A stretch of DNA of 64,000 bases, from positions 1-64,000 of the IMG/VR virus record IMGVR_UViG_3300022305_001387; one strand, 5' to 3'. The stretch comes from a virus (Duplodnaviria; Heunggongvirae; Uroviricota; Caudoviricetes). The translations under genes and the position numbers were made by a program. Below the pieces are notes generated by a model that saw only the letters and a program-made list of their open reading frames with translations, made no database searches and was not told the origin of the DNA. This document shows, one piece after another, positions 11,034-31,736 of this stretch (position 1 is its first letter; each line of letters starts with the position of its first letter).

Positions 11034-11051
11034 TCACATAAAAAAATACAC

Positions 11052-11195: not shown

Positions 11196-11240
11196 ACAAC
11201 AATAATAAAAATAATTAATCACATAAAAAAAACAAAAGTT

Positions 11241-11531: not shown

Positions 11532-11565
11532 ACAAAAACAAATTAATAAATTAAAAACAAAAGTT

Positions 11566-11925
11566 ATGAAAGCATTATTGATCGACTCAAAAAACAAAGT
11601 AGTAAAACAAATCGAAATCGGTGAACACTTCACTGAAATTTCAAAAGCAATAGATTGCGAAACATTTTCAGCTCCTCACATTTTAGAGAATGAAGACACA
11701 CTATATTGTGACGACGAAGGATTGCTGAAAGGTCCTCAACATTTCTTCTTACTCGATACTTATCCTCAGCCAATTGCAGGAAATGGTTTAATTTTAGGCT
11801 GCGACGATGAAGGAGATAGCATCGATGTTAAAACTACTCTCGATGAATTAATTAGTAGAATAACATTCATGAATATTGACGATGCATACAATTGGTCGTT
11901 TAATCAATCTTATCAATTTAACTAA
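11566..11925 (+). CDS. hypothetical protein
   Basis: Track ORF starts at 11494; conserved AAACAAAAGTTATG at internal ATG 11566. Confidence 0.5.
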   Translation: MKALLIDSKNKVVKQIEIGEHFTEISKAIDCETFSAPHILENEDTLYCDDEGLLKGPQHFFLLDTYPQPIAGNGLILGCDDEGDSIDVKTTLDELISRITFMNIDDAYNWSFNQSYQFN

Positions 11926-11941
11926 AATAAAAAAAATTATA

Positions 11942-12184
11942 ATGGCGCAAATAAAAAAAACAACTAGAATTGCAACTCAAAAAACAAATCGTCAAGTATT
12001 AACTAAAGCGATTAAAGATCTAAGTGATATTGATTTGGTATTTTTACGTGAACGCATACTCAGATCATGCGATGAAGTTCTAAGTAATAAAGAACAGATA
12101 CTAAAAGACATGCAATTTAGTTTTATAAAACCAGATTTATTTATCGAGTCTATGCAAAACATAAAAGATAAAATAGATTTCTAA
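11942..12184 (+). CDS. hypothetical protein
   Basis: Internal ATG 11942 after the upstream stop; A-rich context. Confidence 0.45.
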   Translation: MAQIKKTTRIATQKTNRQVLTKAIKDLSDIDLVFLRERILRSCDEVLSNKEQILKDMQFSFIKPDLFIESMQNIKDKIDF

Positions 12185-12252
12185 CTTGAAGTTTATATTT
12201 CTCGATTCAAAAATAATCATTTAATTTTAATACTAATCAAAAAATACAGTTT

Positions 12253-12480
12253 ATGATAATTGACAACACACTTACAAAAGAGGAATTAGAATTCTGTTAC
12301 TATAAAAGAGGTAACGCTGGTGGATTCAAAACAAAATTGATTGAAACAATATTCGCAGCTGATGATGGAAATAGAGCAAAACTAGCTCAAGCATTTCCAG
12401 ATCTTGTAGAAGTAGTTGTTAGGTATGGTAATGAGAGAGGCTATTGGAAAGATTTAGAAACTAGATTCTCAAATTTATAA
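12253..12480 (+). CDS. hypothetical protein (75 aa)
   Basis: ORF preceded by ATACAGTTTATG. Confidence 0.5.
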   Translation: MIIDNTLTKEELEFCYYKRGNAGGFKTKLIETIFAADDGNRAKLAQAFPDLVEVVVRYGNERGYWKDLETRFSNL

Positions 12481-12500
12481 ACATAAAAAAAATAAAAGTT

Positions 12501-12716
12501 ATGCAAATAGAAAGAAAATGTAAAGTATGTCAAGAAGTTATACACCCACTTCGAGTGAAAATGGGATATTCAACTACATGTGTTAAACATTCAACTGCTG
12601 AGAGATACACAGGAGTTGTTGTAGCAGATCATAAAACAGCAGACTCTATTCAAATCATTAAAGATCCAGAAGTTGGTAGAAAATTGATGGAACTTAGTAA
12701 TGTTTATGATCATTAA
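12501..12716 (+). CDS. zinc-ribbon-like protein, paralog of 6836..7084
   Basis: CKVCQ...C.KHS; shared HKT..IQI motif. Confidence 0.5.
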   Translation: MQIERKCKVCQEVIHPLRVKMGYSTTCVKHSTAERYTGVVVADHKTADSIQIIKDPEVGRKLMELSNVYDH

Positions 12717-12754
12717 TAATCGGTATTTATTATCATATAATACAATCCTCAAAA

Positions 12755-12931
12755 ATGAAATATAATTTCGAAAATCTGAGTCCTGACGAAAAAGAACAAC
12801 TCGAAGAATATGTATCGAGTGTCAAAGAAATAAAAAAAGAGATCAAGAAATTGGTTGCTAAGTCTAAAGGACATAACATAGATGAAACTGGCGGCAACAT
12901 GTCGAGCGGTTTACATATCAGCTCCAACTAA
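12755..12931 (+). CDS. small hypothetical protein (58 aa)
   Basis: Plus-strand ORF MKYNFENLSPDEKEQLEEY...; preferred over the overlapping antisense track ORF. Confidence 0.35.
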   Translation: MKYNFENLSPDEKEQLEEYVSSVKEIKKEIKKLVAKSKGHNIDETGGNMSSGLHISSN

Positions 12932-12953
12932 TTTAAAAAATAATACATAAGTT

Positions 12954-13304
12954 ATGCAAATGCAACGAATATTGTACGGAGTACTTTTTGGTGTAATAGC
13001 GCAAGTAATTACTTTCTTGCAATTACAAGGCCAAATGAAGTATAGTATATTAAAAAACAATACATGGTTTTTAGTATTGATGGGAATGCCTATATCTTTT
13101 TTATTCCTAATGTCAGTGAAAAATTTCATACTAGCTTTTAATGGAGAAATTTGGCCTTCAAGAATTATAGGATTCGGAATAGGAGTAATCATATTTACCA
13201 TTATGTCTGAAATTCTATTTAAAGAAGTTATGACATTAAAAACAATAACGTGTTTGTTTCTGTCAATGTTGATTATATTAATTCAAATTTTTTGGAAAAA
13301 TTAA
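12954..13304 (+). CDS. multi-pass membrane protein (116 aa)
   Basis: Preceded by ATACATAAGTTATG; 3-4 hydrophobic segments. Confidence 0.5.
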   Translation: MQMQRILYGVLFGVIAQVITFLQLQGQMKYSILKNNTWFLVLMGMPISFLFLMSVKNFILAFNGEIWPSRIIGFGIGVIIFTIMSEILFKEVMTLKTITCLFLSMLIILIQIFWKN

Positions 13305-13413
13305 TTCACAATGAAAATAATTAATAAAGTTTTGCAATCTTTGTATAAATTTGAAAATTGGTTTAATAACAAATTCGGATGGTTTTTTACAAACGGAAAC
13401 AAACAATAAACAA

Positions 13414-14001
13414 ATGAAAGTCTATAAAAAGTTACAGCTTCCAAAAGATTCTGCATGGGATAGAAAAACATGGAGACGATATACTCATTGGAGAATAAAA
13501 TTCTTTATTGATGGTGTCAAAAACTTATTAAGATGGGTGCCTATTATATATAAAGACAGAGACTTCGATGATTATTATATCTTAAAAATGCTCCAAAAGA
13601 AAATAGAATTTCAAAGACAATATCTCGTAGAACAAAATAGACACACTCATATAGATTGTGATAATTATTGGATGACACTCGTTTTGAATTTATTAGAAAA
13701 AGAAATAGAAAACTATTATGCTTTAGAGATATATGATTATCTAAATAGCGAAATAAAATTTGTGCCTTACGAAGATTCACTCGATAGTTATAAAATGGAA
13801 AAAACAACCATTAGCGAAAACTTAGATGACTATTTAAACAAATATCCTTTATCAATAAGAGCTGTAATGAAGCAAAATAAAGATAGAGATTTTACAGATA
13901 AAGAAACTCTTGCTTTTTATGTTGGAGAATATAATAGCAAAAAATGTAGAAACTTACTTTTTGAAATACTAAAACACAAGAGCAACCAATGGTGGGATTA
14001 A
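13414..14001 (+). CDS. hypothetical protein
   Basis: Track start 13351 is a TTG; first ATG in an A-rich context is 13414. Confidence 0.5.
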   Translation: MKVYKKLQLPKDSAWDRKTWRRYTHWRIKFFIDGVKNLLRWVPIIYKDRDFDDYYILKMLQKKIEFQRQYLVEQNRHTHIDCDNYWMTLVLNLLEKEIENYYALEIYDYLNSEIKFVPYEDSLDSYKMEKTTISENLDDYLNKYPLSIRAVMKQNKDRDFTDKETLAFYVGEYNSKKCRNLLFEILKHKSNQWWD

Positions 14002-14210
14002 TAATATCTTTAATCATTACTTTATTGATAGCAATTATATGGACGATTGGTATTAATAATGTAATCGAACAATATCCAGATTATAAAGGCGAAGACTTTT
14101 TAAATACATATGAAACAGAATACGACTTCTACAAACTCACAGAAAATAAAAGTGGTAAAAAAACAAGGCAGAAAAAGCAAGTATCACAAATCAAAGCTAA
14201 AGCTAAATAA
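13989..14210 (+). CDS. small membrane-anchored protein (73 aa)
   Basis: N-terminal hydrophobic GLIISLIITLLIAIIWTIGI; Lys-rich C-terminus. Confidence 0.45.
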   Translation: MVGLIISLIITLLIAIIWTIGINNVIEQYPDYKGEDFLNTYETEYDFYKLTENKSGKKTRQKKQVSQIKAKAK

Positions 14211-14658
14211 GGATGGATCAATTACGATATACGAATAACACAGGAGCTGTCCAATCTATTAAATTGGGGCATCCCAATAGGCAAACACAGGCATATGAAA
14301 ATAGATAGACCAATGAGCTCCCATTTCACGCAATTTAGTCAGGCAATGGATTGGAAATCAATCAGTTATAACTCATTGGAATTCAATAACTTATATATTA
14401 TCGTGTCCAATCATGGACATATCTTTCACCAAAAAATGAAGCGCATTGAAAAAAGATAAGAAAGGCTTCTACGTGGCAAATTCATTTCAGCAACTCGCTG
14501 AATTGTACAAATCGATCAACGAAAACCAACAGCAAAACCCGAATGCAAAAAAGGAACAGAAGATCAGAACACGAGAAGCAATGAAGCAAAGAAAACAAGA
14601 CTCGTAAGAATAATTTTTCTAAATAGAAAATATAGTTTAATTTAAAATAAAACAACTC

Positions 14659-14913
14659 ATGAAAGTAATTTATTTTACAGCCGAATGGTGCGGTCCATGC
14701 AAAGCACTGAAACCTATCGCACTACAAGTATCTCAAGAAACAGGAGTTTCAATAGATTTTGTAGATGTAGATATGAATAAAGATAAAGCTGCTGCTATGC
14801 AAGTGGCATCTGTACCAACTCTTATTGGTATAGATAGCGTAGGAACTATAAAGTTTAGACACACAGGCATGGCAAGTAAACAAGCACTTAAAAATCTCTT
14901 TAATAAGGTTTAA
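14659..14913 (+). CDS. thioredoxin
   Basis: AEWCGPCKALKP active-site motif (CGPC) in an 84-aa Trx-fold-sized protein. Confidence 0.85.
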   Translation: MKVIYFTAEWCGPCKALKPIALQVSQETGVSIDFVDVDMNKDKAAAMQVASVPTLIGIDSVGTIKFRHTGMASKQALKNLFNKV

Positions 14914-14914
14914 T

Positions 14915-15247
14915 ATGAAACATGAAACATACTCTCAATATCTAAAAGAAATTATAGATTTGGTTCCAGACGATGTAGATGCTGCATTCATAGAATTACT
15001 TCGAATAGCATTACTTCCAATTGTTAAAATGAGATGGGAAGAATATGTTATTGGAAAAACTGAAATATATTATTTAACAGAAGATGAATTAGAGACTTCA
15101 TGGCAAACAGCAAATATGAAACTCATTGAAAATAACTTAAGAAACCTATCAGAATTTGGTTTAATAAAGATGGGAGTCAACGAAGATGGAGAAATAGTCT
15201 ATTCTATTACTGAAGATGGATTAGAATACGTTAAAAACTTAGACTAA
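14915..15247 (+). CDS. hypothetical protein (110 aa)
   Basis: ORF immediately after thioredoxin. Confidence 0.5.
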   Translation: MKHETYSQYLKEIIDLVPDDVDAAFIELLRIALLPIVKMRWEEYVIGKTEIYYLTEDELETSWQTANMKLIENNLRNLSEFGLIKMGVNEDGEIVYSITEDGLEYVKNLD

Positions 15248-15298
15248 AGAATGTTCAGTAGAAGCCTCGATCCGTATATTTATATGTAAAGATCGCAA

Positions 15299-18200
15299 AT
15301 GGCATTAATACTTAGACTGAATCAAGCGAATGCTCTTACATATACAGAACTTGATGGAAATTTTGTTTATTTAGATGGAAGAATAACTAGTGTAAATAGT
15401 AGTTTAACTACTAATATAACAAATGTATCATCATCTATAGTAAATACTATAACTAATAATTCAAGTTCTTTTTCAACATCAATTACAAATTTATCAAGTT
15501 CTACTGCTGCTTCATATACTAGTTTATCAAGTTCAGTAGCTTCTGATACAACTGATTTAAGTGCAATTTCATCTTCACTGGTTGCAGTTTCTTCATCTTA
15601 TGCACCATTATCATCTTCATATTCTCAGTTATCTAGATCTCTTTCTGTTAATGTAGCAAATGTTATAACTACTGGTAGTGCTACTGCATTTCAAAGCATA
15701 ACTGGTAGTTTAATAATATCAAGTAGCTTTCGAGTAATTGGTAAACTAGAAACAACAGGATCTATATTTGCTACTAAATATATTGGAACATTTGGAACAA
15801 CTGCATATGGTGGAATTGGTCCAGCTTTAGATGGTGAATATAATTCAATTAGTGAGATATATAATGTAACTGCAACAAAAGTACCGGCTTTTCCTTTTAT
15901 GTTTAATAATCCTGATAGAGTTTCAACTGCAACTGTTGGTGGAGTGCAATATGTTTTTACTGATATTGGTATAGGTTATCCTGGTTTAAATTCAATAGGA
16001 TCATTAATTAGTCCTGCTGTATATTTCTCAAAAACTGCAGCATCAACAGCTCCATATCCAAAATATATGACTGTTATATCTGATAATACAACAGTTACTT
16101 TAGCAGATGTAAATAATGGAATTTATACAACAAATGGTAGAAATCATACGCTAACTGTTACGGGCAGTTTTCTATCTTTAGACGGAGTTTCTTTAGGTAC
16201 TCATTTATCTGATACACATCACATAACAGGATCTACTAAATTTACTGGATCTATGTATGTTTATGGATTAACTACTCCTCCATCTACGATCGCTTCCACA
16301 AATATATTAGTTGTTAGTAGTTCAGGTCAGATATTTTTAACAGCTTCTTCTGCCACAGGCGGAACCTTTGATACTGCAAGTTTTGTTTCTACCAGTAGTT
16401 TCAATCAGTTTACAAGTTCAGTAGTAACTACTTCAAGTTTCAATCAGTTTACGAGTAGCGTTGTTTCTACAAGCAGCTTCAACCAATTTACAAGTTCAGT
16501 AGTAACTACATCCTCATTTAATATGTTTACTGGGTCTGTTATAACAACAGGCAGCATAGGAGCGAGTCAGTCAATAACAGGATCTTTAACATTATCAGGA
16601 TCTTTTATCATAACTGGTTCAATATCTCTAAACAAGTTGGTTACCTCAAGTGCAGTAACAAATGTATTGACTTATGATACGACTAATGGAAAAGTTTATT
16701 ATACAGCATCTACAGCTATAGGAGGAGGAAATTCAGGATTTGTTACAACTACTACATTCAATGATTTTACTGGATCTGTAATAACAACAGGAAGTGTAGG
16801 ACGAACTCAATCTATAACAGGATCTTTGACAATGTCAGGATCGTATGATATAAAACCTAATTTTGCGAGTACTTATATGGCTTCGCTTACAACAGTCAAT
16901 ACAAGCATTGGTCAAGCATTTGGAGCTTTAATACTCAGAGAAGACAGTGCTGGAACAGGCAATGTAGCAACTTTAAAAACAGATAATCTTACAGCAGATA
17001 GAACAGTGGCTCTCCCTAATAATACTGGAACTTTATTAATGAGAATCAATGAGCAAGAAGGAGATGCTAATGGTAATATTACCATAACTGGAAGCATCAC
17101 AACTGGACTTCTTACAACATCTAGCTTTAATGCATTCACTTCAAGCGTAGTTACAACATCTTCATTTAATAGTTTCACAGGATCAGTAATCACTACTGGA
17201 AGTATATCAATAAGACAATCAATAACAGGATCTTTAATTATATCTGGCAGTAATACAAGTATTATAGGACTAATAACAGCTTCTGCTGCTAATTTAACAA
17301 ATGTGTTAATGATTAGTAGTAGTGGACAATTATTCACCACTGCGTCCTCTGCAATTGGCGGAGGAGGAAATACAACAAATAATTATTATACATCAGCATC
17401 ATTTATATCATCAGGTAGTGTCAGCGCGAGTGTCAATACGAATTCAGCTTCATTCAAAATTACTAGTGGTAGTAGTACATTTATGTTTGTTAGTAATAGC
17501 GGACAAATAGGATTTGGCACTACAAGTTCTCAAGATAGAGTTCAAATATATGGCGATATAGCTTTAAGAAGCGGATCAAATGTTAATACAAATTATGGTA
17601 TGATTAAGTTTGGAACAGATGATCCAAATAATCTATCTCATTATGCAGGCATAGCGTCAAGTGGATACGGAAGCAGCATAGCTAAAGCCAATCTCATGTT
17701 CATTACTGATGGCTCACAAGGTCCATCAGAAAAGATGAGAATTTATGGCGGAGGTAGTGTAACTATTGGAACAACTTCATCTTTAGGTTTTAAAGTAGAA
17801 ATAGATGCTGTAGAAGTAGCACCCGGCTCAGCACTCAGAATATATCAAGACAATACAAATACTTTAGATAAAGCTGGAACAGGTTCTCACATACATCTTG
17901 ACAATCCAAATAGTCTAGGTACAACTGCAATAACTTCATATATCAGTGGCAGTTTTAGAGGCAAGATATTAAATACGTATGAAGGAGATTATCACTATGT
18001 CGTATCAGGATCAGGCGATCATTACTTCTGGACTCAAGGTTATCAAGATAGCGGAGCTATAAGAATGTATATAAGTGCTAGTGGTAATGTTGGTATCGGA
18101 CCTAATTTTCTTGGTCCAAAACAAACTCTAACAGTATCAGGCTCTGTAGGATTTTTGAATATGGTTACAGCATCAGTGCCTGTTACTAATGTGCTAATGA

Positions 18201-20248
18201 TTAGTAGTAGTGGACAAGTTTTCTTAACAGCTTCTTCTGCAATTGGTGGCGGCGGTGGTGGATTATCAGGAGGCACTCCAAATTATATACCAAAATGGAC
18301 TAGTACATCTCAACTTTCAACATCTAGTATATATGATAATAGTGGAAATATTGGTATAGGAATTACAAGCCCTATAACAAAATTAGATGTAGATGGATTC
18401 ATACATTCAGCTGCTAGTTTAATTGGAGATGCTAATCAAGCTTCTAACGGATCTTTAGTTAGCGGCATATCAAGCTCAGCATATGGAATCTATTCACAAG
18501 CTCAAGGAGCTTTTACAGAGGCTTGGATGTATTCTACCCATGCCGAAGGATATGCTACTTTTGTTGGCAATAGAAGTCCAATTTATTATAGTGTTATAAA
18601 TGGAAATCAAGTTTATATACCTGGAAGAGTATCATATTTCAGTATTGCAGATACTATTATTGGTTTAGATACAGGTTTTGGTGGAACTCAAGTTGCAGAA
18701 GGTAATATTACAAATATTAGTTATAATTCTCAAACAGGAATAACAACTATTACCATAGATAATAGTCTATATAATGGTATTGAAGTTACAACATGGACAA
18801 AAGATGGAATCATTCCTGATAATGATCCTAATGATGCAGCACATGCTGAAGGCGTGCTATCTATAGCTGTAGGAAGTGGAGCGCATGCTGAGGGTATTGG
18901 AACATCAGCAAATAATATCTCAGCTCATTCTGAAGGATTATATACTATAGCAAGTGGAGTATCTTCACACACTGAAGGAGAATACACTAAAGCTCATGGT
19001 GAATGCAGTCACGCAGAAGGATATAGCACAATTGCTTTAGGAGACTATCAACATGTACAAGGTAAATGGAATTTGACTTCTTCTTTACAAGCTGCATTTA
19101 TACATGGAAATGGTACATCTGATAGCAATAGAAGTAATCTTATATTTGCCTCTGGATCAGAAGTACAAATTTCAGGTAGTTTAAAAATAACTGGCTCTGC
19201 GATACTTTTCGGATTAGTTACAAGTTCAACATCAAATGTTATAACATACAATACAACTACAGGTCAATTATATTATACAGCTTCATCAGCAATTGGAGGA
19301 GGAGGAAATACAACAAATAATTATTATAATACGTCTTCTTTCATAACATCAGGAAGTATTACTGCTAGCGTGAATATCGGTGCAACATCATTTCAAGTTA
19401 CTAGCGGTAGTAATACATTAATAGCCGTTCGTAATAATGGTGATACCATCATATCAGGATCATTAACAATAGTAACAGGAAGTACAGAATTTCAAGTTTT
19501 AGAAACAGGCACAAAAATAGGAAATATTAGTAGTGATTTCCACACAATCACAGGATCTTTAAATATATCAGGATCTATTAATATGACAGGATCTGCATAT
19601 TTCTCTAGTTCAAGATTCGTAATAAATGCTAATGATTTTACAATACAAAGTTCTGGAACTCAACTTGGAAATGCCACTACAGATGCTCATACAATAACTG
19701 GTAGTTTAGGAATTAATGGTAATGTTTATATAACTGCATCTTTAACTTCAAATCCTGCTCTTATTGTTGAAGGATCTGGTTCATCAAATTCAGTATTTTC
19801 AGTTAGAGGATCTTTAGGAGAATTGTTTAGCGTAAGTGATACTCTTACTGGTTCTTTATTCTCTGTAAATGATATATCTGGTCTTCCGATATTAGATGTT
19901 AATTCTGATCAAACAACAAAGATAGGCAGCTTCTTAGCACCAGGAATGTATACTTCAACAAAAGTAACTGCTAACTCAGGAATCACAGTGATATATAGTT
20001 TACCTACTGCATCATATGATGGAGCATGGTATGATTATACAATTAGATCAGGATCTATTAGCAGAGCGGGTAGTATAATAGCAATATGGAGTGGTAGTCA
20101 AGTTAATTACAGTGAAGTATCAGCATCATCATTTGGTACATCAACAGGATTTGTATTTGGTGCTAGTATTTTAGGAGGTAATATGATTCTTTCAGGATCA
20201 GCTCCAACAAATACATGGATAGTTAAAACAATAATAAGATCTATATAA
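15299..20248 (+). CDS. giant repeat-containing tail-fibre-like protein (1649 aa)
   Basis: S/T/G/N-rich; repeated modules (..NVLMISSSGQxFxTASSAIGGGG.. at four positions; SITGSLxxSGS motifs); tandem TSSFNQFTSSVVT repeats. Confidence 0.7.
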   Translation: MALILRLNQANALTYTELDGNFVYLDGRITSVNSSLTTNITNVSSSIVNTITNNSSSFSTSITNLSSSTAASYTSLSSSVASDTTDLSAISSSLVAVSSSYAPLSSSYSQLSRSLSVNVANVITTGSATAFQSITGSLIISSSFRVIGKLETTGSIFATKYIGTFGTTAYGGIGPALDGEYNSISEIYNVTATKVPAFPFMFNNPDRVSTATVGGVQYVFTDIGIGYPGLNSIGSLISPAVYFSKTAASTAPYPKYMTVISDNTTVTLADVNNGIYTTNGRNHTLTVTGSFLSLDGVSLGTHLSDTHHITGSTKFTGSMYVYGLTTPPSTIASTNILVVSSSGQIFLTASSATGGTFDTASFVSTSSFNQFTSSVVTTSSFNQFTSSVVSTSSFNQFTSSVVTTSSFNMFTGSVITTGSIGASQSITGSLTLSGSFIITGSISLNKLVTSSAVTNVLTYDTTNGKVYYTASTAIGGGNSGFVTTTTFNDFTGSVITTGSVGRTQSITGSLTMSGSYDIKPNFASTYMASLTTVNTSIGQAFGALILREDSAGTGNVATLKTDNLTADRTVALPNNTGTLLMRINEQEGDANGNITITGSITTGLLTTSSFNAFTSSVVTTSSFNSFTGSVITTGSISIRQSITGSLIISGSNTSIIGLITASAANLTNVLMISSSGQLFTTASSAIGGGGNTTNNYYTSASFISSGSVSASVNTNSASFKITSGSSTFMFVSNSGQIGFGTTSSQDRVQIYGDIALRSGSNVNTNYGMIKFGTDDPNNLSHYAGIASSGYGSSIAKANLMFITDGSQGPSEKMRIYGGGSVTIGTTSSLGFKVEIDAVEVAPGSALRIYQDNTNTLDKAGTGSHIHLDNPNSLGTTAITSYISGSFRGKILNTYEGDYHYVVSGSGDHYFWTQGYQDSGAIRMYISASGNVGIGPNFLGPKQTLTVSGSVGFLNMVTASVPVTNVLMISSSGQVFLTASSAIGGGGGGLSGGTPNYIPKWTSTSQLSTSSIYDNSGNIGIGITSPITKLDVDGFIHSAASLIGDANQASNGSLVSGISSSAYGIYSQAQGAFTEAWMYSTHAEGYATFVGNRSPIYYSVINGNQVYIPGRVSYFSIADTIIGLDTGFGGTQVAEGNITNISYNSQTGITTITIDNSLYNGIEVTTWTKDGIIPDNDPNDAAHAEGVLSIAVGSGAHAEGIGTSANNISAHSEGLYTIASGVSSHTEGEYTKAHGECSHAEGYSTIALGDYQHVQGKWNLTSSLQAAFIHGNGTSDSNRSNLIFASGSEVQISGSLKITGSAILFGLVTSSTSNVITYNTTTGQLYYTASSAIGGGGNTTNNYYNTSSFITSGSITASVNIGATSFQVTSGSNTLIAVRNNGDTIISGSLTIVTGSTEFQVLETGTKIGNISSDFHTITGSLNISGSINMTGSAYFSSSRFVINANDFTIQSSGTQLGNATTDAHTITGSLGINGNVYITASLTSNPALIVEGSGSSNSVFSVRGSLGELFSVSDTLTGSLFSVNDISGLPILDVNSDQTTKIGSFLAPGMYTSTKVTANSGITVIYSLPTASYDGAWYDYTIRSGSISRAGSIIAIWSGSQVNYSEVSASSFGTSTGFVFGASILGGNMILSGSAPTNTWIVKTIIRSI
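16391..16546 (+). repeat. 4 x 39-bp tandem repeat inside the fibre gene
   Basis: Units start at 16391, 16430, 16469, 16508; encode TSSFNQFTSSVVT x3 plus TSSFNMFTGSVIT; copies differ mainly at synonymous sites. Confidence 0.8.
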
Positions 20249-20249
20249 T

Positions 20250-21035
20250 ATGGCATTTCGTTTCGGAAATCAAATAATAACAGATGGTTTAGTACTCTAT
20301 CTTGATGCAGGAAATCCAGTTTCATATCCTCGTAGTGGTACTACATGGAGAGATTTATCAAATAATGGCAATAATTTCACTTTAACTAATTCTCCTATTT
20401 ATCAAAATTCAGCTATAAGATTTAATCTTGATGGAACAATAAATCAATACGCTACGTGTGTTAATAATACATTTGGTAATTTTGATACTCAAAATTTTAC
20501 AATAGAATATGTTGCAAATTTTCCATCCACGAATGGAGGATTCTCAGCAATATTGAGTAATAATCATGGAGCTTATCATGCTACAGGTTCAAATACAGTA
20601 GCCGGATATAGTTTAGGAATAATTAATCAAACATATTTTCAAGATAATGGATATAGAGCTAATAGTAATTCAGAACAATTTGGAGCTAATGCCACAAATA
20701 TGCCATTAAAAGACCAAATAACACATCAAGTTTATACTATTCAAAGAGGACCATCTAATGTAGACACAGTAACTGGTAAACTTTATAAAACTGGATCTTT
20801 GACTACAACAATAACATATGATATGGGACCGACTAGATACGCAACTACTGGTCTTAATCCTCTTGGAGATAGTAAAATATCTAATGTAATATATCCATTA
20901 ACTATGATGAAAGCCGCAGCAAATAACTATTATGCAAGTGGTAGCGTATACCAAATAAGAGTTTATAATAGAGTGCTATCTTCAACGGAAATTACACAAA
21001 ATTATATTATAACAAAAAATAGATTTAGAATATAA
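20250..21035 (+). CDS. LamG/concanavalin-A-like lectin-domain protein
   Basis: LVLYLDAGNPVSYPRSGTTWRDLSNNGNNFTLTNSPIY ... IRVYNRVLSSTEITQNY, typical of LamG-type domains. Confidence 0.55.
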   Translation: MAFRFGNQIITDGLVLYLDAGNPVSYPRSGTTWRDLSNNGNNFTLTNSPIYQNSAIRFNLDGTINQYATCVNNTFGNFDTQNFTIEYVANFPSTNGGFSAILSNNHGAYHATGSNTVAGYSLGIINQTYFQDNGYRANSNSEQFGANATNMPLKDQITHQVYTIQRGPSNVDTVTGKLYKTGSLTTTITYDMGPTRYATTGLNPLGDSKISNVIYPLTMMKAAANNYYASGSVYQIRVYNRVLSSTEITQNYIITKNRFRI

Positions 21036-21036
21036 T

Positions 21037-21750
21037 ATGGCAAAGAGTACAACAGAAGGAGCTGGTAGCATAGTAACAAATGGATTAGACATGTATTTAG
21101 ATGCCGCTAATAATAACTCATATCCTGGTTCTGGCACTACATGGTTTGATCTTAGCGGAAATAAAAACAATTTTACTTTAGTAAACTCTCCAACATATAC
21201 AGGCAAAACAATAGACTTTAATGGAAGTAGTCAATATGCTTTATGCGTTAATAATACTTTCGGTAATTATGGATCAAATAGTTTTACCTTTGAATATGCA
21301 ATAAGTATTACATCTTCGCCAAGCACAGGAGTAATTATGGTTAAAAGAGGCCAAATTACAAATATAGGAATAGATGGTTCGCCAGGAATATGTGATAGAG
21401 TAGGAGCAAATAATTTCTTTGCGCAAGATAATAATCCAGGCGGAGTATCAAATAATACTACAAATATAACTAGTCTTACATCATTAGCTATAGGAACAAA
21501 AGCACATATGACTTATACAGTAGAGAGAAATGGATTTGCCGCAACAGGAAGTAGATACCTCAATGGAGTATTAACAAATACCGATAAGAAAACATTTATA
21601 GGTAGCAATACTATTGATAATGCTAATACAATGCAATTAATGAATAGTAGTGCAGGAAGTATTTATATTATGAGATTCTATAATAGAGTTCTATCATCAA
21701 CAGAAGTCAGACAAAATTATTTATCAACAAAAGTAAAAGCCGGTATATAA
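21037..21750 (+). CDS. LamG-like lectin-domain protein (paralog of 20250..21035)
   Basis: LDMYLDAANNNSYPGSGTTWFDLSGNKNNFTLVNSPTY ... MRFYNRVLSSTEVRQNY. Confidence 0.55.
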   Translation: MAKSTTEGAGSIVTNGLDMYLDAANNNSYPGSGTTWFDLSGNKNNFTLVNSPTYTGKTIDFNGSSQYALCVNNTFGNYGSNSFTFEYAISITSSPSTGVIMVKRGQITNIGIDGSPGICDRVGANNFFAQDNNPGGVSNNTTNITSLTSLAIGTKAHMTYTVERNGFAATGSRYLNGVLTNTDKKTFIGSNTIDNANTMQLMNSSAGSIYIMRFYNRVLSSTEVRQNYLSTKVKAGI

Positions 21751-21751
21751 T

Positions 21752-22333
21752 ATGGCAGGAAGAACAGGACCAGGGCTAATAGGAAATCAAAGTTGGACAT
21801 TAACAAATCTCGATGTAACCACTTATAGAAACGGGGACATAATTCCCCAAGTGACATCTTTCTCTACGTGGGCCAATCTTACAACGGGAGCGTGGTGTTG
21901 GTATGGAAACAGTGAAGCATCGGGATCTAAGTACGGAAGACTATATAATTCTTATGCAGTTAAAGATTCGAGGGGTTTAGCTCCTATTGGTTGGCACGTT
22001 GCGACTCAAGCGGAGTGGAGTTCTTTATTTGATAAGTTTGGAGGTATTAATGCAGCAGCTCCTGCTTTAAGATCTAAAGGCACAGATTACTGGACTACAA
22101 ATACTGGAACAAATCAATCATCAATGAATATTAGAGGAGGTGGAGTTAGAAATAATATTGAAGTTGTTCTTGGTGATCAAGGGTTCTACTTAGAAAAAAC
22201 ATGGGCATACTACTATGCGAGCAACGCTACAAATCTATATCGAGTACAAGCAGATATTACTCAAGTAGTCGATTGGGGAACTATTCTAAGTACAAGATAC
22301 GGTGCTTATATAAGAATAATAAAGAATACTTGA
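21752..22333 (+). CDS. FISUMP (Fibrobacter succinogenes major paralogous, TIGR02145-like) domain protein
   Basis: IGNQSW..NL, AWCWY, YGRLYNSYAV, LAPIGWHVATQAEW, GGGVR, YGAYIRIIK match the family consensus as I recall it. Confidence 0.7.
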   Translation: MAGRTGPGLIGNQSWTLTNLDVTTYRNGDIIPQVTSFSTWANLTTGAWCWYGNSEASGSKYGRLYNSYAVKDSRGLAPIGWHVATQAEWSSLFDKFGGINAAAPALRSKGTDYWTTNTGTNQSSMNIRGGGVRNNIEVVLGDQGFYLEKTWAYYYASNATNLYRVQADITQVVDWGTILSTRYGAYIRIIKNT

Positions 22334-22388
22334 TAATTAAATTTATCCAAGATAAAAATATTGATTAAGTTTATCTAAACAAATAGTT

Positions 22389-22661
22389 ATGGCAGACTTC
22401 TCAAAACAATATTGCGACTTATACGATCCAGAAATGCCACACGATTTCGATATAGAAAAAGTGGCCGAAAAGTTAGACAACGATTATTACCTATCTTTTA
22501 TTTGCGAAGGCTTTGGCTTCAGTGCTATTGGCAAAGATAATGAAGGTCAAATAATACTTTATTTTAACAGTGATAATGATTTACCTCATGTTGGATGGGT
22601 AAAATATCAAGATTTTATTAATGAACATACAAAAAATCTCAATAACGAGACTCCTTCGTAA
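22389..22661 (+). CDS. hypothetical protein (90 aa)
   Basis: ORF preceded by AAATAGTTATG. Confidence 0.5.
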   Translation: MADFSKQYCDLYDPEMPHDFDIEKVAEKLDNDYYLSFICEGFGFSAIGKDNEGQIILYFNSDNDLPHVGWVKYQDFINEHTKNLNNETPS

Positions 22662-22716
22662 TTATGAACCCCTTTAGATTCTATCTAAAACAATTTTTAA
22701 ACAAAACAAAACAAAC

Positions 22717-23244
22717 ATGAAAAAAGTAGTATTATTTTTAGCTCTCGCAATCGCTACAACTATCGCGAGCGCACAATTTAAAAAAGCCGACAAATTCGTT
22801 GAAGGCACATTTATGTATTCAAAATCCACAGGAGTTGACGCAGAAACAAGTGTTAAACCAACTGTAGGTTATTTCTTATCTGACAGATTTGCAGCAGGCA
22901 TATTTGCAGTTGCGAGTAAAGATGCATCAACTAAAGACTTTGGTATTGGAGCATTCGGCAGATGTTATTTCGCCAATGTATCAAAGATCAAAGTATTTTG
23001 TCAAGCTGATCTTAGCAATCTAACAGAAAAAGACAATGCTACAGATGTCAAAGCATCTACTTTCTCAGCAGGTCTGGGACTTGGTGCCAATTATTTCGTA
23101 GGATCAAAATGGGCAGTTACAGCTAACGTGTCTAATTTAGTATCTTACGCTAGTCAGAATTCTAATTCAACGTTCTCTGTTGGATTCGACGGACTTACAA
23201 ATCCTTTTACCATTGCAAAATTCGGAGTATTATATAAGTTCTAA
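22717..23244 (+). CDS. small outer-membrane beta-barrel-like protein with signal peptide
   Basis: Signal peptide MKKVVLFLALAIATTIASAQ; alternating amphipathic strands; C-terminal ..FGVLYKF (aromatic terminal residue typical of OMP barrels). Confidence 0.55.
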   Translation: MKKVVLFLALAIATTIASAQFKKADKFVEGTFMYSKSTGVDAETSVKPTVGYFLSDRFAAGIFAVASKDASTKDFGIGAFGRCYFANVSKIKVFCQADLSNLTEKDNATDVKASTFSAGLGLGANYFVGSKWAVTANVSNLVSYASQNSNSTFSVGFDGLTNPFTIAKFGVLYKF

Positions 23245-23270
23245 TTAAATTTACGAAGGAGTTATTTCAA

Positions 23271-23301
23271 AGGAGGTCTGATTTGTCAGGCCTCTTTCAT
23301 T
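23271..23301 (+). terminator. rho-independent terminator-like hairpin
   Basis: AGGAGGTCTGA-TTTG-TCAGGCCTCT followed by TTCATTT. Confidence 0.5.
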
Positions 23302-23314
23302 TAAAAAAACAAAT

Positions 23315-24265
23315 ATGATAAACAAAATCGGTTATGCTTGTATTAACATGACTCTCGGTAAATCAGCTACCACAAACAGAGGCATGACACTCAAAACATT
23401 TAAAGCCAAAGGTCCAGATTATGTATCTGAATTGGCACTTAAGAATGCACAAGACGTTATTAAGATTCTTAAGTGGAATGAAGAACACGGCATAAAAATG
23501 TTCAGGCTCTCATCTGCGCTGATTCCATGGGGCAATGTAGTTGATATAGATTCTCTAAAAGACATAGACCAGATAGCCGCAGCACTCAAGGAAGCAGGCG
23601 ATTACGCAGCAGAACACGGACACAGAATCACTACACACCCTGGTCCATACACAGTTATTGCATCTACAAATAATATTGTAGTAGTAAATGCCATAAAAGA
23701 TTTAGAGATGCACGCTAAAGTATTTGATCTTATGGGTTTGAGTAAAACTCCATATAACAAGATAAATATACATGTCAATACAACTACAAACGGCAAGAAA
23801 GAATCTATGAAAAGATTCTGCGATGCCTATTGGCATTTGTCAGATTCTGTAAGATCAAGATTGGTTGTAGAGAATGACGATAAAGCGAGTCAGTACTCAG
23901 TAGAAGATCTGATGTATGTACATGAATTGATAGGTATTCCAATTACATTTGATTATTTCCACCACTCTCATCAACCTGGATCTCTCACAGAGGAACAAGC
24001 GCTGAAATTGGCAGCAACTACATGGCCTGAAGGTATCACTCAAGCTACTCATTATAGTGAGAGTAAAAGATTACACGAAAACAATCCTAAAGAAAATGCA
24101 CGTGCACATTCGGATATGGTAAATAGCTTACCTGAAACTTATGGACTCGACATAGATGTAATGACAGAATGCAAACTTAAAGAACTTGCACTATTACCTC
24201 ATATGGATAGCATTACTAAGAAATTAATCTTTGAAGATAAAAAAGAATCGTTTATATTTATATAA
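23315..24265 (+). CDS. uvdE: UV DNA damage endonuclease (UvdE family)
   Basis: Colinear matches to Bacillus UvdE: RLSSALIPW, INIHV, VVENDDKASQY, ITFDYFHHS, RAHSDMV, DVMTECKLKELALL. Confidence 0.85.
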   Translation: MINKIGYACINMTLGKSATTNRGMTLKTFKAKGPDYVSELALKNAQDVIKILKWNEEHGIKMFRLSSALIPWGNVVDIDSLKDIDQIAAALKEAGDYAAEHGHRITTHPGPYTVIASTNNIVVVNAIKDLEMHAKVFDLMGLSKTPYNKINIHVNTTTNGKKESMKRFCDAYWHLSDSVRSRLVVENDDKASQYSVEDLMYVHELIGIPITFDYFHHSHQPGSLTEEQALKLAATTWPEGITQATHYSESKRLHENNPKENARAHSDMVNSLPETYGLDIDVMTECKLKELALLPHMDSITKKLIFEDKKESFIFI

Positions 24266-24299
24266 ATAAAGCAAAACATTATTCATTAAAACAAAAATC

Positions 24300-24590
24300 A
24301 TGATTCCATCATTAATTTCTATGTTAGTTATTATTGCGGTAGTAACAACCTTGATTGTGGGTGTACAGAAATCTAAGAAAAACGAGATTCAAACTCAAGA
24401 TTACTGGAAACTAAAGTTATCAGAAGCTGAGGCTCAACAAAAAGAATTCGAAGAGTATGCAGAAAAAGTTCTTAATCAACCAAAAAAGAGAGCGGCAAAA
24501 ATGAAAGCAGAAACAGCTCCAATTGAAAAGAAGAAACAAACAAAAAAACCAAAGTCAACTAAAAAACAAAATACATATGAAATGCATTAA
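24300..24590 (+). CDS. membrane-anchored Lys-rich protein (96 aa)
   Basis: N-terminal TM ISMLVIIAVVTTLIVGV, K-rich tail. Confidence 0.5.
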   Translation: MIPSLISMLVIIAVVTTLIVGVQKSKKNEIQTQDYWKLKLSEAEAQQKEFEEYAEKVLNQPKKRAAKMKAETAPIEKKKQTKKPKSTKKQNTYEMH

Positions 24591-29917: not shown

Positions 29918-30151
29918 AAATTCATAACACTAGCAGATAGCCAAGGACGTAGAGTCTTAATCAATCCAATGACGATAACAACACTACAGGAGGAAGAGGA
30001 TACAGATCTATTATTCAAGGCTAAGATATATACAATGGGAGGTGATAGAAGGCATGTAAGGGAGACTATAGAAGAGATCTTAGAGCTAATAAAAAAATCA
30101 GAAAACATTCATACAATCACCTGGGAGACAGAACCAAAATCAGATATATGA
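29915..30151 (+). CDS. hypothetical protein (78 aa)
   Basis: ORF after the boundary repeat. Confidence 0.5.
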   Translation: MKFITLADSQGRRVLINPMTITTLQEEEDTDLLFKAKIYTMGGDRRHVRETIEEILELIKKSENIHTITWETEPKSDI

Positions 30152-30474
30152 ATAAAGAACAACAGCAGATTGTTGATAAGGTATATGAAGAGTATGAGAG
30201 GCTTTGTCAATCACAGGAGCTTATTGATTATGACGATAAAGAGACCTTTATCAAAAGTATTAAGAATTATAGTATGGTTGCAAAGCGGTGGGGATTAAAG
30301 ATTGAGGAAAGAGAGTTGAGTGAAGAAGAAAGATACGACTTATATGAAGAAAAGTATATGTTTACTGAAACGATTGAGGAAAGGGGAATTGATTATAAAT
30401 ATAAAATACCAACCAAACTAATCACAGTAACATACGAAGGTAAAACAATAGAGAGTTATGATAGGAATAGATAG
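30148..30474 (+). CDS. hypothetical protein (108 aa)
   Basis: ATGA overlap. Confidence 0.5.
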   Translation: MNKEQQQIVDKVYEEYERLCQSQELIDYDDKETFIKSIKNYSMVAKRWGLKIEERELSEEERYDLYEEKYMFTETIEERGIDYKYKIPTKLITVTYEGKTIESYDRNR

Positions 30475-30664
30475 CATCAAACCACACTACGAGATAAGAG
30501 CAAGAGATATAGATCCGGATACGGGAGACGTGTCTAAGGATTGGGCATTGGCAATAGCAATGAAAAAAGAAGCAGCATACTTAATAGTTCATGCTATGAA
30601 TACAACAGATGACGAACCAAACAGAATGTATTACGCATTGCATAGAGAAGAAATAAAACAATAA
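30458..30664 (+). CDS. hypothetical protein, paralog family A
   Basis: See 26285. Confidence 0.45.
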   Translation: MIGIDSIKPHYEIRARDIDPDTGDVSKDWALAIAMKKEAAYLIVHAMNTTDDEPNRMYYALHREEIKQ

Positions 30665-30705
30665 CAAAAGGATAATATAATAATCATAATCCAGATAAGA
30701 CCAAG

Positions 30706-31020
30706 ATGATAGAGTGTACATGTATAAATGCAAACAATAGACCCAAAGAAATACCCAAAAACAAATGGGTAAAGAAGGGAAATACATACACCGTCATATA
30801 CACACTAACTGTATTGCCGCAACGACAGTTGGCGTTCCATCTGCAAGAGATAGATCTGGACGAATCAAATGCACCATACGAATACTTCTTAGCTAATAGA
30901 TTTGCATTTAAACCTGAAGCGCTGGATGAGTTAATGGATCTGATTAAAGCATGTAGTGATACAGACTTTTCAATGGAAGAGCTGCTAAAGCAGACAGAGC
31001 TGGTGACAGCCACGACGTAA
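30706..31020 (+). CDS. hypothetical protein (104 aa)
   Basis: Plus-strand ORF preferred over antisense 30684..31034. Confidence 0.5.
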   Translation: MIECTCINANNRPKEIPKNKWVKKGNTYTVIYTLTVLPQRQLAFHLQEIDLDESNAPYEYFLANRFAFKPEALDELMDLIKACSDTDFSMEELLKQTELVTATT

Positions 31021-31260: not shown

Positions 31261-31261
31261 A

Positions 31262-31667: not shown

Positions 31668-31736
31668 TCACACCAGATCCAATGCCCTATTACCTTTCAT
31701 CTAATTCTATTTAAAATAAAAAAAACAATTAAAGTT

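Follow-up and report, generated by a model that had tools for sequence, protein, structure and literature searches.

What do the genes packed immediately behind a giant phage fibre gene contribute to the virion, and how might their products be attached to it? The question was raised by a locus in a 64,000-nucleotide stretch of caudoviral DNA from IMG/VR (the whole stretch being referred to here as the window), where a first-pass annotation had placed two tandem LamG-like paralogs and a FISUMP protein directly downstream of a giant fibre and had proposed that they form a receptor-binding cassette. This gene order was confirmed, as was the translational packing, which takes the form of three identical junctions (ATATAATATGGCA) of a stop codon, 1 nt and a start codon (Table 1). 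A known phage was rejected as the source, since megablast of positions 15000-24500 against 50,697 phage records returned zero matches; the window belongs to an uncultured phage. It was compared with relatives L001, L002, L004, L005, L007 and L046, the comparative loci being all metagenomic except for a distant relative, immuto. A promoter and terminator scan of positions 14500-23400 gave counts equal to those expected by chance, and the only Rfam matches were to tRNAs far from the cassette.

Table 1. Features of the fibre locus in the window.
Feature	Position	Strand	Basis or remark
Giant Ser/Thr/Gly-rich fibre protein, 1649 aa	15299..20248	+	ORF; ends conserved with L001/L002/L004
fibC, conserved 162-aa fibre C-terminal domain	19760..20245	+	Alignment; fibre residues 1488-1649
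Junction 1, ATATAATATGGCA: fibre stop TAA, 1 nt, ATG GCA of slot A	20243..20255	+	
Tag A, MAFRFGNQ, N-terminal peptide ahead of jellyroll	20250..20273	+	
Slot A head (LamG1), LamG/ConA-like jellyroll protein (predicted), 261 aa	20250..21035	+	
Junction 2, ATATAATATGGCA	21030..21042	+	
Tag B, MAKSTTEGAGS	21037..21069	+	Motif class common to L001, L002 and L046 heads
Slot B head (LamG2), LamG/ConA-like protein (predicted), 237 aa	21037..21750	+	Slot A paralog
Junction 3, ATATAATATGGCA	21745..21757	+	Identical to junctions 1 and 2
Tag C, MAGRTGPGL	21752..21778	+	Same tag on FISUMP, LRR and LamG heads of relatives
Slot C head, stand-alone FISUMP domain, 193 aa, C-type-lectin-like fold (predicted)	21752..22333	+	

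The fibre and its conserved C-terminal domain

The N-terminus (MALILRLN..LTYTELDGNFVYLDG) and the C-terminus of the fibre are conserved in the relatives, the middle being variable and internally repetitive. The protein gave zero matches in Pfam or PHROG, and homology-based annotation points to a tail fibre, as opposed to a fibre of the neck or of some other part of the virion. A fibre family found in the relatives ('M[AP]NEF.IKNGL') was also considered for the window, but the matches obtained there were weak (E 3e-4 to 6e-3) and confined to the fibre itself, and no gene of this family was seen.

The C-terminal domain, fibC, is 52-77% identical between the window and L001, L002, L004, L005, L007 and L046. 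It was found in 233 IMG/VR stretches, forms 536 clusters of 50% identity at E<=1e-30, occupies the very C-terminal end in 75 distinct IMG/VR loci, and ends at the protein C-terminus in 150/150 proteins among those listed. No Pfam, PHROG or PDB match was obtained by sequence, no names or Pfam domains were on record, and a full-length match was absent from the 50,697 GenBank phage records searched. Among 185,579 species genomes, fibC was found on one contig only, a 4.5-kb piece of a Flavobacteriaceae MAG. Judged from these searches the domain appears to be essentially virus-only, and the single MAG match is a weak hint as to the host.

Genomic context places the module among structural genes. 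In L005 and L007 it lies between a Portal_T4 gene and a Peptidase_S77 prohead protease gene. The cultured Flavobacterium phage immuto (vB_FspM_immuto, on Flavobacterium sp. LMO8) has a fibre of the same N-terminal class, annotated as 'tail fiber-like protein', and behind it three LamG genes with the deposited name 'structural protein'. In the window, the GC3 values of the fibre, LamG1 and LamG2 genes are 0.11-0.16 (fibre 0.129), with most baseplate-block genes at 0.10-0.14 and a window median of 0.23.

Predicted folds and origin of the downstream proteins

Profile searches, which the first-pass annotation had suggested as a check, gave scores above the curated cut-offs for the FISUMP protein and just below the cut-off for both LamG-like ones. 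Slot C scored 105.5 bits against PF09603 (cut-off 33.9), spanning profile positions 3-187 of 187, and 48.3 bits against TIGR02145 (cut-off 41.65). Against PF13385 (Laminin_G_3), with a gathering cut-off of 27.6 bits, LamG1 reached 23.9 bits (E 5e-05) and LamG2 27.5 bits (E 3.9e-06). Many LamG1 homologues carry a precomputed PF13385 match, and both LamG1 and LamG2 match PHROG 8510 ('virion structural protein'). Neither LamG1 nor the FISUMP protein had a PDB match by sequence. Predicted models showed a LamG/ConA-type beta-jellyroll in LamG1 and LamG2 and a C-type-lectin-like fold in the FISUMP protein, so that the head folds are modelled as LamG, LamG and C-type-lectin-like FISUMP. The proteins might alternatively be enzymes, with the LamG/ConA-like pair acting as glycoside hydrolases or lyases (GH16- or PL-like) and the FISUMP protein being FGE-like, together making up a depolymerase set against capsule or exopolysaccharide; we regard this as quite unlikely.

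Because of its C-type-lectin-like fold, and as FISUMP has been reported as a DGR target, the slot C gene was also considered as the target of a diversity-generating system. A direct-repeat search of the whole 64-kb window found no repeat involving positions 21752-22333 except the LamG paralogy; as no template-like repeat was present, the idea was rejected for this window.

The wider FISUMP family bears on where the slot C protein came from. Its N-terminal two-thirds are 53-59% identical to many metagenomic homologues, the best of which has a signal peptide and lipobox, and the few source-named homologues include Flavobacterium and Chitinophagaceae proteins at about 50%. A hydrophobic N-terminus was seen in 29 of the 46 homologues aligned and a lipobox-like motif in 13; the N-terminus of the window protein (MAGRTGPGLIGNQSW) has no hydrophobic stretch and no signal peptide. 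Cys49 of the WCW motif is kept in the window and is invariant across 47/47 sequences. At the C-terminal SVRC position the window protein has Ile, where 37/46 homologues have Cys, and it does not therefore show both cysteines; variants with Leu at this position lacked a signal peptide in 7/8 cases. In distinct FISUMP ORFs from IMG/VR loci (n=73) the domain was at the extreme C-terminus in 60, and 41 exceeded 400 aa, in line with use of FISUMP as a tip module in other proteins. Secreted-looking FISUMP ORFs made up only 5/95 in a set that retains duplicates and includes the window, L001 and L004. For bacterial FISUMP proteins, a cellulose-binding or cohesin-like role has been proposed (PMC4704652). 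The description of the domain as Bacteroidota-restricted, and of the set as host-phylum-specific, was incorrect as stated.

It is conceivable that the FISUMP gene was acquired recently from among the surface-protein genes of a host, as a moron without a fibre role that was inserted by chance beside the LamG genes. Its resemblance to metagenomic FISUMP proteins, the closest of them bearing export signals, would fit such an origin, as would a GC content (39.3%) and GC3 (0.247) exceeding those of the fibre and LamG genes. The higher GC3 implies that its expression class or history may differ from that of the other cassette genes. However, this GC3 is at the level of the window median and the gene is therefore no outlier; as a test of recent host-to-phage transfer, base composition was ambiguous. 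The gene product, moreover, no longer has a signal peptide and begins with tag C, as do LamG and LRR heads of the same slot; the junction in front of it is identical to the other two; and the arrangement recurs in L004, with FISUMP heads also occupying slots of L001, L046 and L166. Capture by chance is thus considered very improbable.

Linkage of fibC to short tags and exchange of heads behind them

The three downstream proteins each begin with a short peptide belonging to a class that recurs across loci: M-A-F-x-[YF]-[SG] in slot A, M(x)STV.G in slot B and MAGR... in slot C. Linkage was counted in 68 distinct loci with enough downstream sequence, and 571 ORFs were screened for tags. The gene next after fibC carries tag A in 60/68 loci at a spacing of -4 to +8 nt (in the window, 1 nt past the fibre stop codon). 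All of the tag-A matches among the 571 ORFs (60/60) were at the first position after fibC, and 42/45 tag-C and 35/38 tag-B matches were within the fibC chain, genes with tags C and B usually following next after slot A. A strict linkage therefore runs from fibC to tag A and on to tags B and C. The commonest order was A-C-small-B (14/68 loci), and the order seen in the window, A-B-C, belongs to a minority (4/68). A conserved protein of ~87 aa (METQ.YENR[EK]FMIF...; 43 ORFs across the fetched loci, duplicates included) is usually located between slots C and B; it had no tblastn match in the window and is therefore not obligatory for the module.

The tags are retained while the domains behind them change. 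Most tagged heads are LamG, with FISUMP, BspA-type LRR and DUF285 also found behind the same tags. Tag A fronts FISUMP heads in L046 and L166, an LRR_5 head in L127 and others, and the first position after fibC is taken by DUF285+PKD in L138 and by an ArabFuran-catal-like domain in L137. The tag B class is found on a LamG head in L002 (MARSTVEGPNG) and on FISUMP heads in L001 (MANSTVQGGPS) and L046 (MNSTVEGGPEP). Tag C precedes FISUMP in L004 (MAGRIGPLP) and L046 (MSGKTGT), a BspA-type LRR in L002 (MAGRIGPLPP) and 36 LamG heads (MAGRIAYYGG). Viewed by fold, LRR_5 is found both in slot A (L127) and in slot C (L002), and FISUMP in each of the three slots; in L046 all three are filled by FISUMP, the heads being 53-63% identical and carrying three different tags. 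Tags are thus retained over at least four head families. FISUMP heads are nevertheless uncommon (7/137 tagged heads), which bears out part of the earlier description of the set as unusual; in a large phage family, by contrast, a LamG run is the norm after this fibre type. The trio of the window is a rare form of a large phage module that has gone unannotated.

Are the tags conserved as peptides? In slot A, Ser6 is encoded by both TCN (31) and AGY (8) codons and Pro7 by all four of its codons; Gly3 of slot C is invariant (40/40) and uses all four Gly codons, and Thr3 of slot B is likewise invariant (24/24) with all four codons used. The conserved residues thus employ several synonymous codons, including both Ser families, and selection therefore acts on the tags at the amino-acid level. 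In the predicted model of slot A, residues 1-6 have a pLDDT<50 and the first strand lies at 14-19; N-termini of such low model confidence are as expected of free tails. The heads have no signal peptides. At 8-11 residues, the tags are far shorter than the known anchors of receptor-binding proteins, which measure about 100 aa or more.

This conservation could have a different cause if the heads were virion binding proteins attached via their globular domains, the tags being kept by re-initiation or coupling constraints, N-terminal processing, shared ancestry or preferred recombination break-points at gene starts. At every junction stop and start indeed overlap or lie 1-8 nt apart, and the next gene opens with ATG GCA/AGT; in genomes without clear Shine-Dalgarno use this puts the first codons within the re-initiation context, and homologous recombination would be favoured exactly at conserved gene starts. 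Against this stand the variety of synonymous codons, the fact that each of the three tag classes keeps its identity despite changes of head fold while the related heads of L046 differ in tag, and the difficulty of seeing how globular domains of unrelated folds could share a docking surface. We consider this explanation unlikely.

The heads diverge fast and fibC slowly. Median pairwise identity was 58% for fibC compared with 31-34% for the heads, and even in comparisons with a fibC identity of at least 70% (median 77%), head identity was only 34-40%. In the window, the slot B head is 38% identical to slot A, 29% to slot B of L004 and 51% to slot B of L002. In the closest relatives, slot A ranks with the best conserved proteins (75-86%). 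Such conservation is uncommon in a specificity determinant and would suit an adaptor or a function in assembly just as well.

It is for slot A, accordingly, that the strongest case can be made for the heads being assembly chaperones or transient caps that help the fibre tip to fold and are absent from, or only transient on, the virion, like T4 gp38/gp57A, lambdoid Tfa or Alteromonas phage caps. Fibre chaperones are classically encoded where these genes lie, right behind the fibre gene and translationally coupled to it; slot A is conserved along with fibC in close relatives, and fibre-tip chaperone caps have been documented (PMC10579305). Searches of Pfam, NCBIfam and PHROGs, however, linked none of the three proteins to a chaperone family (T4 gp38/gp57A, Tfa, Mu U and S74-type caps), and their predicted folds are those of lectins and adhesins, whereas the chaperones of PMC10579305 resemble intramolecular chaperone domains. 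The presence of 2-5 different heads per fibre, the exchange of unrelated folds and fast divergence would be expected of specificity determinants rather than folding helpers, and the solved Pan3 gp15, a LamG-like protein of similar size, is a permanent tail appendage. A chaperone role is therefore given little weight.

A proposed multivalent fibre tip and its relation to known systems

Our preferred reading, which we hold to be probable though by no means certain, is that the three genes encode distal binding heads of a virion fibre, docked through their tags on fibC. Under this proposal fibC would serve as a docking platform at the fibre end, and each head would consist of an N-terminal tag of about 8-11 residues and one globular ligand-binding domain. 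Fibre and heads would be expressed as one unit by way of the stop-1 nt-start junctions, the tags would fix each head to fibC or to another head, possibly through beta-strand addition, and the heads would bind host surface glycans, giving a multivalent, multi-specific fibre tip. Host range would then evolve by replacement or divergence of heads behind a fixed tag. Incorporation into the virion, docking by the tags, carbohydrate ligands and the role in host range are what we infer from these data. The receptor-binding cassette of the first-pass annotation is thus supported in part, by the ligand-binding folds, the tight linkage to fibC in dozens of viral contigs, the fast divergence of heads, the structural-block position in relatives and the baseplate-like GC3 of LamG1 and LamG2; that account had overlooked the conserved fibC and the persistent tags.

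More broadly, and only tentatively, fibC and its three address-tagged slots may represent an undescribed and widespread plug-and-play arrangement for host recognition in large aquatic phages, probably infecting Bacteroidota. Peptides of 8-11 residues would then suffice to dock unrelated folds (LamG, FISUMP, BspA-type LRR and DUF285), perhaps in a donor-strand-like manner, heads would be swapped between slots, phages and bacterial surface-protein genes, and FISUMP would be a glycan-binding adhesin module, which would place this enigmatic domain in a functional context for the first time. A literature search found no description of the module, its coverage being incomplete and such absence not proof. 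Receptor-binding proteins decide phage host range, and almost nothing is known of them for phages of aquatic Bacteroidota. If the proposal is true, specificity determinants could be read from metagenomes by locating fibC and then the tagged genes that follow; three new annotation families could be set up, for fibC, for the classes of tag and for the ~87-aa partner, none of which has a Pfam or PHROG match today; an unusually small attachment tag would be available for engineering interchangeable binding heads; and FISUMP, which is common in Bacteroidota and reaches tens to more than a hundred copies in a Fibrobacter genome, would be linked to adhesion. Should the proposal prove wrong, the fact that tag A is so strictly linked to fibC would still call for an explanation.

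The gp38 adhesin of T2/T6-type phages is a small separate protein that sits at the end of the long tail fibre formed by gp37, is encoded directly downstream of it and sets receptor specificity; in T-even gp38 the variable parts evolve fast, and the fibre tip that gp38 binds is conserved. The heads described here resemble it in being encoded by separate downstream genes, in their presumed position at the tip and in having fast-evolving parts on a conserved fibre tip. There is, however, no sequence or family match and the fold differs, the present heads being LamG, C-type-lectin-like or LRR domains. Furthermore, gp38 is present as one per fibre with a folded N-terminal anchor, whereas here there are 2-5 heads with a presumed anchor of an 8-11-residue tag.

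The DGR variable proteins Mtd of Bordetella phage BPP-1, TvpA and TaqVP have the C-type-lectin-like fold that is also predicted for the FISUMP head, at 10-13% identity, and no template/variable-repeat pair accompanies the FISUMP gene in the 64-kb window. Mtd has additional N-terminal regions, whereas the FISUMP head is a bare single domain, and diversity in the DGR proteins arises by mutagenic retrohoming, unlike the gene replacement and divergence of the heads. Bacterial FISUMP proteins (TIGR02145/PF09603) of Fibrobacterota and Bacteroidota share the domain family with slot C; many of them have a signal peptide or lipobox, often with extra FN3 or other domains, in place of which the phage protein has tag C. 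The tailspike gp15 of cyanopodophage Pan3 (PDB 9vyh, chain q) is only 12% identical; Pan3 is a podovirus of cyanobacteria, and gp15 is without a known fibC-type partner or tag system.

As an analogy only, the umbrella toxin particles of Streptomyces (PMC13274773) carry a diversified set of lectins per particle that decides which cells are bound, as a form of bet-hedging; these are a secreted bacterial toxin complex, an unrelated system with unrelated proteins, and no homology is implied. Closer in organization are the branched systems of CBA120 (TSP1-4), G7C (gp63.1/gp66), DT57C (LtfA/LtfB) and phiKp24, which have several receptor-binding proteins per appendage, as proposed here. They likewise pair conserved N-terminal attachment parts with exchangeable C-terminal binding parts. 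In those systems, however, the known anchors are folded domains with a length of some 100 aa or more, and most heads are enzymes built as trimeric beta-helices, whereas the module described here would rely on a peptide of about 8-11 residues and on small lectin-type heads of unrelated folds.

Layout of the cassette and identity of its heads

The three genes directly downstream of the giant fibre, designated slots A, B and C, each start 1 nt after the preceding stop codon. The first ATG was taken as the ORF start throughout, a choice supported by the stop/start junctions and by conserved N-termini. The 13-mer ATATAATATGGCA is present as an exact copy at all three cassette junctions; with one mismatch allowed it matches five times in the window against 0.46 expected, a number reached in 0/100 shuffles. 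The tight packing claimed in the first-pass annotation was therefore confirmed, as was the location of the cassette far from the minus-strand baseplate block, to which a gp6-like wedge gene belongs.

Features of the window
Feature	Coordinates	Strand	Details
A-rich leader AATAAAAAATAAAAGTTATGA	6600-12520	+	precedes many small genes (repeat families D4, D6, D9)
~90-nt intergenic element, four copies	2045-2132, 4886-4973, 9100-9187, 31270-31332	+	core GTTGGTTCTCCCTGAA..TTTTTGAAAATA.TTGC..AATTTTACCATGTC
Giant fibre	15299-20248	+	1649 aa
Internally repetitive part of fibre	16298-19436	+
39-nt fibre unit	16383-16538	+	tandem copies, encoding TSSFNQFTSSVV
~70-nt fibre unit	at 16298, 17297, 18185, 19235	+	about every 1 kb; encodes VLMISSSGQ.F.TASSAIGGGG
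Slot A, LamG1	20250-21035	+	261 aa
Slot B, LamG2	21037-21750	+	237 aa
Slot C, FISUMP	21752-22333	+	193 aa
Protein with clear signal peptide MKKVVLFLALAIATTIASAQ	22717-23244	+	175 aa; PF13505 (outer-membrane beta-barrel) 26.3 bits, cut-off 28.7
UvdE (UV damage endonuclease)	23315-24265	+	PF03851 209.8 bits; TIGR00629 210.2 bits
GC-rich island	30000-38000		GC 0.38-0.41, about 0.30-0.34 elsewhere
Three high-GC3 genes	31737-34682		GC3 about 0.49, twice the window median
tRNA cluster	37122-37227, 37393-37482, 37722-37795	+	ARAGORN: tRNA-Ile (90 nt; length and anticodon position unusual), tRNA-Glu; Rfam: third tRNA-like match (106 nt, 31.5 bits, barely over threshold)
PKD-domain protein	41913-43289	+	PKD_4 74.8 bits
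PD40 + OmpA protein	44367-45713	+	OmpA 70.8 bits
Tandem paralogs, in block with wedge gene	52181-52864, 52871-53806	-	repeats 76% identical, 966-nt spacing (families D8, D12, D17); GC3 0.11-0.14, as in other structural genes
gp6-like baseplate wedge gene	62302-63912	-

The two LamG-like proteins are tandem paralogs, as had been proposed (38% identity, E 9e-38), and PHROGs 24074, 8510 ('virion structural protein') and 38104 match both. Profile searches upheld the FISUMP assignment of the third protein, with PF09603 (105.5 bits) and TIGR02145 (48.3 bits) both above their curated cut-offs, but left LamG1 (23.9 bits) and LamG2 (27.5 bits) slightly under the Laminin_G_3 gathering cut-off of 27.6. 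The cassette had thus been described correctly in ORF layout, paralogy, domain matches and baseplate gene position. The claim that FISUMP is restricted to Bacteroidota did not hold, as the family is named for Fibrobacter, Fibrobacteres genomes hold 17-119 copies each (PMC4704652), and it is also found in a Microcystis phage.

FISUMP is a common phage module in IMG/VR, where it occurs in 413 stretches and lies at the extreme C-terminus in 60 of 73 distinct ORFs (41 of the 73 being longer than 400 aa). Head folds were predicted from models of monomers only; fold comparison of the FISUMP model gave figures of 6.5 for the Legionella Lcl C-terminal domain, 6.2 for TaqVP, 6.1 for Bordetella phage Mtd and 5.7 for the Bdellovibrio Bd2740 C-terminal domain. 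Its C-terminal third, where model confidence is lowest, is the likely ligand face if Mtd and TvpA are taken as guides. The protein has no signal peptide and carries Ile at the position of a C-terminal Cys found in 37/46 homologues; eight homologues have Leu there, seven of which also lack a signal peptide. The absence of both features would fit cytoplasmic folding.

Elsewhere in the window, the phage may encode an outer-membrane protein of its own in the 175-aa ORF that closely follows the cassette, a candidate for a moron or for superinfection exclusion. The ~90-nt element probably serves the phage as a promoter or in regulation, and the A-rich leader has the look of a common start context, for translation or transcription, in an early-gene block. 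The three high-GC3 genes may be recently acquired or host-derived, and the PKD and PD40+OmpA proteins have typical cell-envelope-associated architectures.

Conserved tags in front of exchanged heads

No close DNA relative of the window was present among 50,697 phage records, and related viral contigs were found by protein-guided searches; these comparative loci are metagenomic viral predictions. The cassette recurs in them as a module and is not an oddity. The fibre is followed by LamG, LamG, FISUMP and UvdE in locus L004, by LamG, FISUMP (57.5 bits) and UvdE in L001, and by LamG, a 360-aa BspA-type LRR protein (LRR_5, 120.6 bits) and LamG in L002; UvdE adjoins the cassette in all three and is 78-91% conserved in them. 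In L005 and L007, a T4-type portal gene precedes the fibre, and three LamG genes and then further genes follow, with the prohead protease gene lying farther downstream in L005.

The cassette N-termini recur whatever domain comes behind them. Tag A (MAFRFGNQ in the window; family M-[AGS]-F-x-[YF]-[SG]-P-K) marks the first gene after fibC, the conserved C-terminal domain of the fibre; tags C (MAGRTGPGL; MAG[RKN][IV]...) and B (MAKSTTEGAGS; M(x)STV.G...) are carried by genes after slot A. Linkage was assessed in 75 distinct fibC loci, 68 of them with at least 900 nt downstream, and tag matches were counted among 571 ORFs (minimum length 150 aa). A tag-A gene lay at -4 to +8 nt from the fibC stop in 60/68 loci, and all 60 tag-A matches among the 571 ORFs were at the first position after fibC; matches to tags C and B fell within the post-fibC chain in 42/45 and 35/38 cases. 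In the commonest order, found in 14 of 68 loci, slots A and C come first, then a conserved ~87-aa protein and then slot B; the A-B-C order of the window was found in four. The loci examined contained 43 ORFs for the ~87-aa protein (METQ.YENR[EK]FMIF..IDFTQV.ETS.DTVRKS.DG.KTFVKW...), which mostly sits between slots C and B (within the cassette at 9043-9333 in L093 and 8885-9154 in L156) and is absent from the window.

Behind these fixed tags the heads are exchanged across folds. With HMMs built in this analysis (E<=1e-4), slot A heads were classed as LamG in 55 cases, FISUMP in two and other in three, slot C heads as 36, three and three, and slot B heads as 32, two and one, some of the 'other' class possibly being divergent LamG. 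LRR_5 heads occupy slot A in L127 and slot C in L002, and the first position after fibC holds DUF285+PKD in L138 and an arabinofuranosidase-B-like jellyroll in L137; several heads of the 'other' class received no domain assignment. In L046, related FISUMP heads (53-63% identical) fill all three slots, each with its own tag.

The tags might be kept for translational coupling and not for docking. However, Ser6 of slot A is encoded by TCN in 31 cases and AGY in 8, and all four codons are used for Pro7, for the invariant Gly3 of slot C (40/40) and for the invariant Thr3 of slot B (24/24). Tag conservation is thus at the peptide level, which weakens the coupling explanation, although it still stands.

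The heads diverge faster than fibC. Across 28 loci with all three slots, median pairwise identity was 58% for fibC, 34% for slot A and 31% for slots C and B, and where the fibC identity of a pair reached 70% or more (median 77%), that of the heads was just 34-40%. The closest relatives of the window differ from this trend, with slot A 75-86% identical, similar to UvdE (73-96%), and slot B 29-51% identical; for the FISUMP head, identity is 50% over 141 residues, its C-terminal third being unaligned. A role of the cassette proteins as chaperones or caps remains a rival, above all for the slot A protein with its high conservation.

GC3 is 0.13 in the fibre and 0.10-0.14 in most baseplate-block genes, and with values of 0.11 and 0.16 LamG1 and LamG2 share the composition of structural genes; the FISUMP gene, at 0.247 (window median 0.23), may be a more recent acquisition. 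That it is an unrelated captured host gene is still an alternative, weakened by the tag it carries and by the several loci in which it recurs.

The fibre C-terminal domain

Fibres of related loci range from 403 to 1947 aa with completely different middle parts, and have in common the last ~162 residues (52-77% identical to the window). This fibC domain had no Pfam or PHROG family and no sequence relative in the PDB, and it bore neither name nor Pfam domain in a 5.8-billion-protein collection. The domain is abundant all the same: at 50% identity, its matches formed 536 clusters at E<=1e-30 and 1231 at E<=1e-10; fibC ended at the C-terminus in 150/150 proteins among the matches listed. It was found in 233 IMG/VR stretches. 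In the proteins of L090-L169, the N-termini combined with fibC fall into five or more recurring classes (MALILRLN..ELDGNF; MPNWKKV.SGS; MANRNNTFLLKRS..GELAINT; MPNEF.IKNG; MSG.LQIKRG..GEFYLN), with shafts of about 190 to 2300 aa, so that the tip module has been placed on a variety of attachment parts and shafts. The repeats within the window fibre suggest a shaft built from duplicated segments.

The GenBank phage collection searched held no full-length fibC match. The first ~60 residues match a 'tail fiber protein' of Flavobacterium phage immuto, and a protein of a 735-kb uncultured phage with a LamG match 2-4 kb away. In Synechococcus phage S-SKS1 (NC_020851.1; L171), the first ~55-60 residues of the motif lie near the C-terminus of a 1727-aa protein (9990-15173, deposited as 'baseplate wedge subunit'), and a LamG-containing protein (8157-9626) is encoded two genes downstream, 2-4 kb off; in cyanophages, this pair may correspond remotely to the module. 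The cultured phage immuto (MW353176.1; L009) is the best available experimental proxy: its 'putative tail fiber-like protein' (fibre and LamG region 7238-11744) starts with MPSWKKVILSGS, the N-terminal class of many fibC fibres, and three LamG genes follow, although the C-terminal domain differs and fibC-type tags are absent.

Three observations hint at a Bacteroidota host: a Flavobacterium phage is the nearest cultured relative to carry LamG homologues, homologues with source names come from Flavobacterium and Chitinophagaceae, and the sole fibC match among 185,579 species genomes lies in a Flavobacteriaceae MAG, on a contig of 4.5 kb.

A candidate fibre-tip module and known systems

On the best-supported reading, the distal binding heads of a virion fibre are encoded by the cassette. 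fibC would serve as a conserved platform, the heads as specificity determinants and the tags as attachment elements that may dock through beta-strand addition, the aromatic residues of tag A being in alternating positions. We infer that the heads are present in the virion, bind glycans and influence host range, with the rival that they are enzymes rather than lectins still standing.

A conserved attachment part is likewise combined with an exchangeable binding part in the gp38 adhesin of T2-type fibre tips and in branched multi-receptor-binding-protein systems, and Mtd has the fold predicted for the FISUMP head. Diversity-generating retroelements reportedly target FISUMP domains (PMC11661182), but the window contained no repeat resembling a template for the FISUMP gene. 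The cassette belongs to none of these families, having no sequence-family match to any, and its presumed attachment part is a short peptide, about 8-11 residues long, in place of a folded domain. No description of fibC, the tags or the module was found in curated libraries or the searched literature, the coverage of which was incomplete. Fibre-tip adhesin cassettes are already known; what seems to be new here is the three-slot, cross-fold, minimal-tag arrangement.
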